A stretch of 14,199 bases of DNA from a virus (taxonomy: Duplodnaviria > Heunggongvirae > Uroviricota > Caudoviricetes): the IMG/VR virus record IMGVR_UViG_2740892231_000004. One strand, 5' to 3'. Below the pieces are notes generated by a model that saw only the letters and a program-made list of their open reading frames with translations, searched no databases and had not been told where the DNA came from. Numbering within the stretch: the stretch's first letter is position 1; every line of letters starts with the position of its first letter. Below are positions 12,570-14,131 of this stretch, one piece after another. The position numbers and the translations under genes were made by a program.

Positions 12570-12649
12570 GAATTATCCTATAAATCATTCTTTAGTGTTT
12601 AGTTGTTAATTATTTTTAATCTGTCTTGTCAGAAAGTGCGAAATCGATC

Positions 12650-12679
12650 TTGCATTTACATTTTATTACATAATATAAA
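12650..12679 (+). promoter_or_regulatory. Candidate sigma70 promoter (TTGCAT, 18 nt, TATAAA) overlapping an OmpR-box-like ATTTACATTTTATTACATAATAT
   Basis: Read directly from the AT-rich leader about 90-120 nt upstream of the porin ATG. The TTTACATTTT core resembles OmpR sites of ompC/ompF as recalled. No scoring was possible. Confidence 0.25.
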
Positions 12680-12767
12680 TTGAACTAAGAATTTGTATTA
12701 AAATATTTTAATTTTTGTTCATGACATCTGAATGCATGAATAGTTCAGTTTAAATAAGGATTAAATC

Positions 12768-13922
12768 ATGAAAAAAATGACAGTGGCACTTTCTGCTGTA
12801 GCAGTGGCAGTGATGTTTGCTGCGGGGGCGCAGGCAGCAGAAGTTTATAATAAAGATGGTAATAAACTGGATCTTTACGGGCGTGCAACCGCTCTGCATT
12901 ACTTCTCGGATGATAAAGGTAATGACGGAGACCAGACTTATGCTCGTCTCGGCTTTAAAGGCGAAACGCAGATTAATGATCAACTGACCGGATTTGGTCA
13001 GTGGGAATACCAGTTCTCTGGTAACAAAACGGAATCTGAAGGTTCCGCGGGAAATAAAACCCGTCTGGCATTTGCAGGTCTGAGATTTGCAGATGTTGGT
13101 ACCATTGATTACGGACGTAACTATGGTATTGCTTACGATGTCGGATCATATACTGACGTACTGCCTGAGTTTGGTGGTGATGGCTGGACGCAGACCGATA
13201 ACTTTATGACGGCCCGAACTTCCGGTGTCCTGACTTACCGTAATACAGACTTCTTCGGACTGGTTGATGGTCTGAATTTTGCGGCGCAGTATCAGGGCAA
13301 AAATGAGCGTGATGACCTTCAGAAGGCTAATGGCGACGGGTATGGTTTCTCGGCCAGCTATGAGTTTGATGGTTTTGGTTTTGTCGCTGCGTATACCAAG
13401 TCAGATCGTACTGATAAGCAGGTTCAGGGGTTGAATGGTACTGCAGATGTTCTTGATCCTGCATCAGGTAAAAAGGTTGGAGAAAAAGCAGTTGACTCAG
13501 GTAGTGTGGCAAAAGGTAAACATGCTGAATTCTGGGGAACTGGTCTTAAATATGATGCCAATAACCTGTATCTGGCAGCAGTGTATTCTGAAACCCAGAA
13601 TATGACGACCTTTGGTGATCAAGGTGTTGCGGATAAAGCTCAGAATATCGAAGCCGTTGTTCAGTATCAGTTTGATTTTGGTCTGCGCCCGTCCCTTGCC
13701 TACCTTCAGTCCCGCGGACAGGATGTTATGGTTGGTGGTGTGAACCATGGCGATCAGGATCTGGTTAAATATATTGATGTCGGTGCGACTTATTACTTTA
13801 ACAAGAATATGTCCACCTATGTTGATTATAAAATTAACCTGATTGATGAAAGTGAATTTACCCGGAAAGCCGGTGTTGCGACAGATAATATCGTTGCTGT
13901 GGGTATGACTTATCAGTTCTGA
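12768..13922 (+). CDS. Outer-membrane general porin, OmpC/OmpF/PhoE family (phage-borne NmpC/Lc-like), with signal peptide
   Basis: 384 aa. Signal peptide [23 protein letters not shown] then mature N-terminus [15 protein letters not shown]. Porin blocks [102 protein letters not shown] and C-terminal YQF. AAGGA SD 7 nt before the ATG. Confidence 0.9.
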
Positions 13923-13948
13923 TTATTGCTGATAAGTTAATAAATACG

Positions 13949-13973
13949 GGCCGTCTGCCCTTACAGGCGGCCT
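13949..13973 (+). promoter_or_regulatory. Stable 9-bp stem-loop 26 nt after the porin stop (no U tract)
   Basis: GGCCGTCTG pairs with CAGGCGGCC (one G-U wobble), loop CCCTTA. Confidence 0.35.
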
Positions 13974-13977
13974 GTAT

Positions 13978-14000
13978 CAATGAAAACACAGTTTTCATTG
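13978..14000 (+). promoter_or_regulatory. Perfect 10-bp inverted repeat CAATGAAAAC-aca-GTTTTCATTG
   Basis: Exact palindrome read from the sequence. Could be an operator-type protein site or an RNA hairpin. Confidence 0.3.
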
Positions 14001-14095
14001 GTCACTGCGATCAGCAATTGCCATCTGGCATGTGCTGATTTAACTTTCTGTTATTACCTTTATTGGTTTTATTTTAAATTGGACTTTTATTGTTC

Positions 14096-14119
14096 GGGGC
14101 GCGTCTGCGCCCCTTTTTT
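14096..14119 (+). terminator. Rho-independent terminator (GGGGCGC-gtct-GCGCCCC + TTTTTT) closing the porin moron
   Basis: 7-bp GC stem, 4-nt loop, T6 tract; 12 nt upstream of the L start codon. Confidence 0.7.
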
Positions 14120-14131
14120 ATGGGCGGATAT

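Follow-up and report, generated by a model that had tools for sequence, protein, structure and literature searches.

A porin cassette with an IpeX-like 3' untranslated region between the tail genes M and L of a lambdoid prophage

Introduction

The closest described relatives of the element treated here are the phage-borne porin genes lc of PA-2 and nmpC of DLP12, each of which is followed by the ipeX region of 162 nt; IpeX of PA-2/DLP12 represses OmpC and OmpF (PMC8065619, PMC5069750, PMC7177473). The subject of the present account is a porin-encoding cassette in a stretch of 14,199 nt of viral DNA (IMG/VR virus record IMGVR_UViG_2740892231_000004; the whole stretch is called the window hereafter), where it sits between the tail genes M and L. 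The most fitting description of the cassette is a diversified relative of the Lc/NmpC-IpeX conversion module that has moved to another site. It carries an intact porin gene of the Lc/NmpC/OmpD clade, under strong purifying selection and with one hypervariable loop, and the gene is flanked on either side by conserved non-coding elements. That it is a lysogenic-conversion moron working as a porin-replacement kit is the interpretation towards which we lean with fair, not high, confidence. In the literature searched, no porin at the M/L junction was described.

The Locus and Its Insertion Site

The window comprises the late region of a lambdoid prophage with an HK97-type head and a lambda-type tail, encoding a terminase nuclease domain, a protease-capsid fusion, the portal, head-tail connectors, the tail tube, the G/T chaperones, a 1080-aa tape measure and M; features and coordinates are compiled in Table 1. 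A near-identical genome locus, L001, is collinear over the whole window at 99.5% identity. An earlier note on this DNA had placed a cassette of AT-rich leader, complete porin gene with signal peptide and terminator between the end of M (12569) and the start of L (14132). All of its coordinates hold, and each component was located, by a full PF00267 match, by the alignment to solved OmpC and by a hairpin followed by six T residues. The alignment of the M-L junction, which the note had proposed, yielded an insert-free version in the Stx1a phage Stx1a_2598, where the sequence reads ...GGTGAACTGATGCAGGAT... and the M stop overlaps the L start, so that the insertion point of the cassette is exactly the M/L junction. 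The boundaries enclose an insert of 1,562 nt, which replaces only the last three codons of M.

The cassette is AT-richer than the tail genes, as had been noticed before, its GC content being 0.33 for the leader and 0.42-0.48 for the porin gene as against 0.51-0.61 for the tail genes. Insertion between genes that are adjacent in related phages, a terminator of its own and a deviant composition make it a moron in the sense of Hendrix and Juhala (the definition is summarised in PMC8065619), and the earlier reading as a porin moron, self-contained, compositionally distinct and missing from most relatives, stands. The cassette is co-oriented with the tail genes. In insert-free phages the start of L is coupled to the stop of M through TGATG; here the terminator ends 12 nt upstream of the L ATG, and the intervening TTTTTTATGGGYGGA, judging from its sequence, gives L a putative ribosome-binding site that replaces M-L translational coupling.

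The Porin

The encoded protein has the features of a general diffusion porin, namely a full Porin_1 match (480 bits vs a cut-off of 23.7, profile positions 1-337 of 337), a signal peptide, a 16-stranded barrel, the PEFGG motif and a C-terminal aromatic residue. Solved OmpC chains match it at E=1e-131 in an alignment that begins at residue 24 (AEVYNKDG), which implies a signal peptide of 23 aa, and in the protein alignment PEFGG and the terminal YQF are invariant across the cassette porins. The AlphaFold2 (AF2) model, used for strand and loop counting only, has 16 barrel strands and a predicted local distance difference test score (pLDDT) of 68, i.e., moderate confidence. Amino acid identity amounts to 67-69% with Lc (67.7%), NmpC and the 'OmpD' of ECOR phages, to 67% with Salmonella OmpD, and to 58% with OmpC or OmpN of K-12; by sequence, then, the protein groups with the phage porins Lc/NmpC/OmpD rather than with OmpC proper. 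Its designation as an OmpC-family porin in the earlier note is right in so far as it is a general diffusion porin of the Porin_1 (OmpC/OmpF/PhoE) family, but its nearest kin are Lc, NmpC and OmpD. The RefSeq label of the cassette porin, 'porin OmpC', is a generic family name.

Outside the long loop, the ratio omega of non-synonymous (dN) to synonymous (dS) divergence lies at 0.04-0.09 between lineages, with dS reaching 0.5-1.6, which points to an old gene under strong constraint. The reading frame is intact and ends in YQF in 30 of the 32 distinct copies, and a further copy (L018) encodes an intact protein of 370 aa (P0015). Variation is concentrated in residues 214-251, which in the AF2 model form an extended hairpin between strands 203-213 and 252-264. 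This loop holds almost all indels (0 to 25 aa), and its dN is 0.2-0.35 vs 0.004-0.07 elsewhere. Between the window copy and its nearest lineage dS is 0.89 in the loop vs 0.11 in the remaining gene, which indicates that the loop segment was swapped through recombination.

Distribution and Lineages

Among 5,426 complete E. coli genomes, 92 contain the 2.1-kb M-porin-L stretch at a query coverage of at least 80%, 109 (about 2%) contain the cassette when searched for alone, and 1,696 give flank-only matches. At least 22 complete genomes, among the matches listed, carry the 2.1-kb stretch at 99-99.7% identity, and the cassettes of complete genomes fall into groups of about 99, 95, 91, 86 and 79% nucleotide identity to the window. 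The carriers are mostly Shiga-toxin-producing E. coli (STEC) together with animal or human gut isolates. Cassette sequence was also found in 32 IMG/VR viral contigs, metagenomic ones included, and the IMG/VR contigs that span the region run collinearly from M into L. M and L abut in most related phages, and none of the 111 phage GenBank records matching the flanks contains the cassette. Along these lines, the idea that the gene might be an ordinary feature of all relatives of this phage, raised in the earlier note as an objection, fails on those 111 records, on the frequency of about 2% and on the discontinuity in GC content. A search of PLSDB gave only more distant plasmid or phage-plasmid porins (60-80% identity), and no copy with tail-gene flanks.

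The order M-porin-L was found in all ten annotated phage contexts opened, and these comprise two types of tail module, the second being lambda-type with a tape measure of 853-860 aa and an M of 109 aa (as in mouse strain 8178, rodent strain A39 and L018). Its occurrence in every annotated context, and in two tail modules, argues against a one-off insertion; what the M/L junction offers is a conserved slot, occupied by a family of diversified cassettes. With nucleotide identities of 78-99.7% and dS >1 between lineages, the cassette is evidently old and diversified. The site had been called unusual, which is apt in that it differs from the location of Lc and NmpC between Q and the lysis genes; it is not a singular site, as the ten contexts and the 32 contigs attest.

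The cassette has also been encountered outside any prophage. Two draft contigs (L019 3731-5268 and L020 3731-5380) harbour a 79%-identical porin cassette next to IS66, Rop, phosphotransferase system (PTS) or type VI secretion system (T6SS) Tle1 genes. Both retain decayed M stubs, and L020 also an L stub with an in-frame stop, from which it can be rationalized that the unit was picked up from the tail region of a phage. In L019 the 3' untranslated region (3'UTR) is cut by an IS66 end just upstream of the terminator.

The Leader

Sequence variation is expressed as pi, the mean pairwise difference over 32 distinct copies, for which third codon positions (pi=0.29) serve as reference. Conserved blocks follow the variable, AT-rich first part of the leader. 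The ompC counterpart of the 15-mer listed in Table 1 begins about 100 nt upstream of the ompC transcription start, counted on the K-12 sequence, at a site which we take to be C1, the high-affinity OmpR site of the Mizuno and Inouye laboratories. The putative OmpR box TTTACATTTT-ATTACATAAT (12655-12674) has, on sequence, the expected make-up of two tandem 10-bp half-sites upstream of a -35 element. The first half-site, TTTACATTTT (12655-12664), hardly varies (pi=0.012), and variation in the second is confined to forms known from genuine OmpR sites; in the L004 lineage the box reads TTTACATTTTGAAACA and agrees with C1 at 16 of 16 positions. Downstream of it, TTGAAC (12680-12685) has pi=0.056 and AATATTTT (12702-12709) pi=0. 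If TTGAAC-18 nt-TATTTT is taken as the promoter, the OmpR-like box would span about -61 to -42, as a promoter-proximal OmpR site does. Furthermore, the lc leader of PA-2 contains TGACATC-N10-AATAGTTCA at equal spacing ahead of its Shine-Dalgarno sequence, and this shared element with its shared spacing argues for homology of the two leaders.

The 3' Untranslated Region and Its Seed

The 3'UTR is a conserved structured RNA. In an alignment of nine sequences, seven of them distinct, 99.3% of the cells are paired and eight pairs show compensatory changes; 0 of 500 shuffles reach the observed value, and slid controls attain 35-46% pairing. The element occupies the position typical of IpeX, downstream of a phage porin's stop codon and ahead of a Rho-independent terminator, and the ipeX region folds into the same order of elements. 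In ipeX, ..CTTCTGTTATATATTACCCTTTATT.. stands ahead of GGGGCGTCTCAACGCCCC, and in the window ..CTTTCTGTTATTACCTTTATTGG.. stands ahead of GGGGCGCGTCTGCGCCCC. When a profile of the cassette 3'UTR was run with nhmmer against 14 kb of targets, the best hit was the ipeX of PA-2/DLP12 at the equivalent place (E=0.003). The relative L021, with a 70%-identical porin, has a seed intermediate between the window and ipeX types. The 3'UTR thus appears IpeX-like in architecture and seed, and homology to ipeX is probable.

Two further observations concern this region. The sequence GGTCACTGC (14000-14008), unpaired between the second and third stem-loops, is invariant in 32 of 32 distinct copies and complementary to GCAGTGGC, a motif that the 5'UTRs of ompC and ompF have in common; it may serve either for a second contact or for processing. 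A 59-codon reading frame from 13980 was discarded as unconserved, since in the alignments the L003 lineage lacks its ATG and has a stop.

The core of the seed (14049-14063) has pi=0.066 vs 0.224 for the remaining single-stranded region. Duplex energies were calculated with seeds of 30-36 nt against five leaders, with 500 shuffles each and with positive and negative controls. Against ompC, the window seed is predicted to pair from -37 to -4 with -27.8 kcal/mol (z=-5.3, reached by 0 of 500 shuffles), against ompF with -19.6 kcal/mol (z=-2.4), and against its own leader it stays at background (z=-0.2). The positive controls gave -26.5 kcal/mol (z=-5.2) for MicC on ompC and -27.4 kcal/mol (z=-5.1) for MicF on ompF, and the cross-controls, MicC on ompF and MicF on ompC, z=-0.8. 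The ipeX region itself (L011 2367-2530 in DLP12, L009 2590-2752 in PA-2) shows, according to the same calculation, strong complementarity to the MicC site in the 5'UTR of ompC; the DLP12 sequence is predicted to pair there, at the same site as the window seed, with -26.4 kcal/mol (z=-4.9). This suggests that IpeX itself might act by pairing at the MicC site of ompC.

In the 79% lineage (lineage B; the window belongs to lineage A), the seed TTTTCATTTTATTACCTTCATCG is predicted to pair with ompF from -24 to +9 with -23.2 kcal/mol (z=-4.8) and with ompC from -14 to +12 with -21.5 kcal/mol (z=-4.1). Its core, UUAUUACCUUCAU, equals UUAUUACCGUCAU of MicF but for one position. In 5,365 of the 5,426 genomes the leader of ompC has an identity of 99% or more, so that the target is present in carriers. 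The seed pattern, scanned against genome contigs, was too AT-rich to be specific; the matches listed came from unrelated taxa, and the scan is uninformative on taxonomic range.

Proposed Function and Alternatives

The sequence of events that we infer involves expression in the lysogen, control by OmpR, silencing of ompC and ompF in trans and exclusion of phages. In the lysogen, the porin gene would be transcribed from a weak promoter of its own, assisted by OmpR bound to the C1-like box next to the -35 element, and the porin would be exported and inserted as a trimeric pore. The 198-nt 3'UTR, within the mRNA or as a processed 3' fragment, would act in trans like IpeX: its seed would pair with the ompC leader over the MicC site and the Shine-Dalgarno sequence, and more weakly with the ompF ribosome-binding site, thereby blocking translation of the host porins, and would be expected to leave the cassette's own leader unpaired. 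OmpC and OmpF would thus be replaced by the phage porin, such that permeability is kept and the receptors of OmpC-/OmpF-dependent phages and colicins are lost. In lambda, Q-modified polymerase reads through terminators during lytic growth; in the same manner, Q-modified RNA polymerase would pass the cassette terminator, and the cassette would provide the ribosome-binding site for translation of L. The fuller version of this proposal, a tail-operon moron family whose 3'UTR RNA silences OmpC or OmpF by mimicking the seed of MicC (lineage A) or MicF (lineage B), while a seed-immune phage porin with a rapidly exchanged loop takes over from them, is put forward tentatively, at somewhat short of an even chance.

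Several observations weigh against the porin-replacement reading. The candidate promoter matches only 8 of 12 consensus positions, and a consensus promoter scan reported none on the + strand. Of the 'own promoter' claimed in the earlier note there remains a candidate, backed by the invariant -35/-10-like blocks and the OmpR-like box. The profile match to ipeX is confined to 41 nt (seed and terminator), and an Rfam scan of 12400-14199 gave no match, only NsiR9 at chance level (E=0.32). AU-rich seeds with ACCUU will pair with many Shine-Dalgarno regions. The original IpeX paper (Castillo-Keller et al. 2006) reportedly saw no obvious complementarity to ompC, which is at variance with our duplex calculation. 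Finally, the C-terminus of J from the closest genome matches only untyped J proteins of long-tailed Stx phages, which gives no ground for claiming self-exclusion after the pattern of PA-2.

Some of these points would equally suit a moron that delivers nothing but a porin, whose 3'UTR stem-loops just stabilise the mRNA or terminate transcription and whose seed complementarity is incidental, owing to an anti-Shine-Dalgarno-like AU-rich sequence or to shared ancestry of porin flanks; host porins would then be displaced only through competition for OmpR, BAM or envelope space. Trans action is predicted from pairing, the similarity to ipeX is weak, Rfam is silent, and duplex predictions with the full 3'UTR or with 62-nt regions yield long AU-rich pseudo-duplexes that discriminate poorly. 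On the other hand, the seed varies far less (pi 0.066-0.087) than the neighbouring single-stranded region (0.224) or synonymous sites (0.29), its energy and target site equal those of MicC with the own leader and the cross-controls at background, and the homologous position downstream of lc and nmpC is that of the experimentally defined ipeX, all of which renders the porin-only explanation rather unlikely. Cargo that serves the fitness or virulence of the host is likewise unlikely, if less so: pore properties or an antigenically variable loop would aid the lysogen in the gut (bile, antibiotics, nutrients, evasion of antibodies or colicins), with phage exclusion as a side effect. The predominance of STEC and animal or human gut isolates among the carriers, the single hypervariable surface loop exchanged by recombination, and the escape of related copies into IS66-flanked non-phage contexts speak for it; however, nothing in the data discriminates it from porin replacement, with whose molecular mechanism it is compatible, and Lc of PA-2, the classic precedent, is linked with the OmpC receptor being lost (PMC8065619).

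Least of all do we expect an artefact or dead cargo, that is, a chimeric assembly with a chromosomal porin locus, as the earlier note had cautioned, or a pseudogene decaying in a defective prophage. The portal gene of the window is split into three reading frames, and the copy may be defective or an assembly with indel errors; yet dozens of complete genomes and viral contigs, independent of one another, have identical junctions, and together with an omega of about 0.05, intact reading frames and the conservation of the flanking signals this refutes such a reading.

The cassette, which occurs in about 2% of the complete E. coli genomes and in many cases in Shiga-toxin producers, is annotated merely as 'porin OmpC'. 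If it does swap the major porins, carriers would differ in their susceptibility to OmpC/OmpF-dependent phages (including therapeutic T-even-like ones), to colicins and to antibiotics that enter through porins, as well as in surface antigenicity. The porin-plus-silencer design of PA-2/DLP12 emerges as a mobile modular unit with at least two slots in lambdoid genomes and an escape to IS-flanked non-phage contexts, and the predicted mimicry of MicC/MicF seeds supplies a mechanism, open to direct test, by which the poorly understood IpeX class may act.

Other Features of the Window and Related Loci

Table 1. Features at the M/L junction of the window (numbering of the 14,199-nt stretch).
Feature	Position	Strand	Remarks
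Minor tail protein M gene	12228..12569	+	PF05939 Phage_min_tail, E=3e-33; last ~3 codons unlike insert-free relatives, co-varying with cassette lineage
Variable AT-rich 5' part of leader	12570..12649	+	GC ~0.33; pi=0.277 (about that of third codon positions); no conservation between lineages
OmpR-box-like element TTGCATTTACATTTT-ATTACATAAT	12650..12674	+	15-mer TTGCATTTACATTTT (12650-12664) identical to K-12 ompC upstream sequence, C1 position
Candidate promoter	12680..12709	+	-35-like TTGAAC 12680-12685, 18-nt spacer, -10-like TATTTT 12704-12709
Conserved leader block GTTCATGACA	12717-12726	+	pi=0.018
Conserved leader block GAATAGTTCA	12738-12747	+	pi=0.025
Shine-Dalgarno AAGGA of porin gene	12756-12760	+	pi=0.000
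Porin gene, 384 aa	12768..13922	+	PF00267 Porin_1, E=6e-144; signal peptide 12768-12836; PEFGG constriction-loop motif; C-terminal YQF
Hypervariable long surface loop	13407..13520 (aa 214-251)	+	fifth external loop by strand count; indels up to 25 aa between lineages
Structured 3'UTR, IpeX-like architecture, 198 nt	13923..14119	+	stem-loops SL1 13944-13977, SL2 13978-14000, SL3 14009-14040; single-stranded AU-rich region; terminator
Seed TTTCTGTTATTACCTTTATTGG	14045..14066	+	complementary to host ompC 5'UTR -37 to -4 (MicC site and Shine-Dalgarno)
Intrinsic terminator	14096..14119	+	GGGGCGC-GTCT-GCGCCCC and T6: 7-bp all-GC stem, 4-nt loop; stem invariant in all copies
Putative cassette-supplied ribosome-binding region for L	14120..14131	+	GGGCGGA 14122-14128; TTTTTTATGGGYGGA kept in all lineages
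Minor tail protein L gene, start (rest beyond window)	14132..14199	+	ATG 14132; annotated L in L001 and every other locus inspected

The portal gene of the window (3045-6002) consists of the reading frames 3045-3530, 3568-5310 and 5409-6002, the first two of which match Phage_portal, and L001, 99% identical, has a single portal frame of 915 aa; the window copy may be a defective prophage or an assembly with indel errors. The C-terminal extension of the portal gene contains a 162-bp tandem repeat (4735-5280; 3.4 copies, 91% matches), whose copy number differs in L001. In L001, the closest complete genome (24172-26588, 30988-31128, 33726-42100), the tail genes I and J are separated by an IS66, J is followed by a Hok/Gef toxin gene, and beyond the tail-fibre genes there are a second IS66 as well as genes for a YadA-like adhesin and an S6 (SPATE-type) peptidase. 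The 79% cassette lineage has a second cargo block between the tail genes L and K (L003 6285-8310; L004 6273-8285), which encodes a ClpP-family protease, an Arc-family repressor, a YlcI/YnfO protein and an Ant/P22AR antirepressor.

Comparison with Known Systems

The conserved architecture of the cassette is most readily compared with that of lc-ipeX (PA-2) and nmpC-ipeX (DLP12, qsr'). In each case a phage-borne general porin of the same clade is involved (67.7% amino acid identity to Lc), and the TGACATC-N10-AATAGTTCA element of the leader recurs in lc-ipeX. The 3'UTRs present three stem-loops in the same order, an AU-rich seed (..TTCTGTTAT..TTACC(C)TTTATT..) and a GGGGCG...CGCCCC terminator, and the ipeX seed is predicted to pair with the same site of the ompC leader. 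The known units differ in being located between Q and the lysis genes, with nmpC on the strand opposite quuD and essD; about 32% of the porin residues differ, and the window porin has a much longer hypervariable fifth loop. Furthermore, the stems of the 3'UTRs are unalignable in sequence, the right end of the window cassette appears to supply the ribosome-binding site of L, and the seed of the sister lineage is MicF-like, not MicC-like.

As far as the morons are concerned, the cassette resembles lambda lom and bor and HK97 gp15 (tail region), each an extra late-region gene between two genes that lie side by side in relatives, with its own terminator and a deviant composition; unlike the classical lambdoid morons, its cargo is a full-size porin together with a predicted regulatory RNA. 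With E. coli OmpC and Salmonella OmpD the cassette porin shares fold and motifs, and the C1-like OmpR box is identical over 15 nt to that of ompC, whereas protein identity is only 58% (K-12 OmpC) and 67% (OmpD).

The likeness to the small RNAs (sRNAs) of the host resides in the seeds. MicC GUUAUAUGCCUUUAUUG compares with UGUUAUUACCUUUAUUG of the cassette, and MicF with lineage B in the core sequences given above, with the same predicted target window and energy on ompC and ompF, respectively. MicC and MicF are, however, chromosomal, Hfq-dependent, stand-alone sRNA genes, divergent from ompN and ompC, whereas the cassette element is the 3'UTR of a porin mRNA, and similarity beyond the seed is zero, which argues that the resemblance reflects mimicry or convergence rather than membership.

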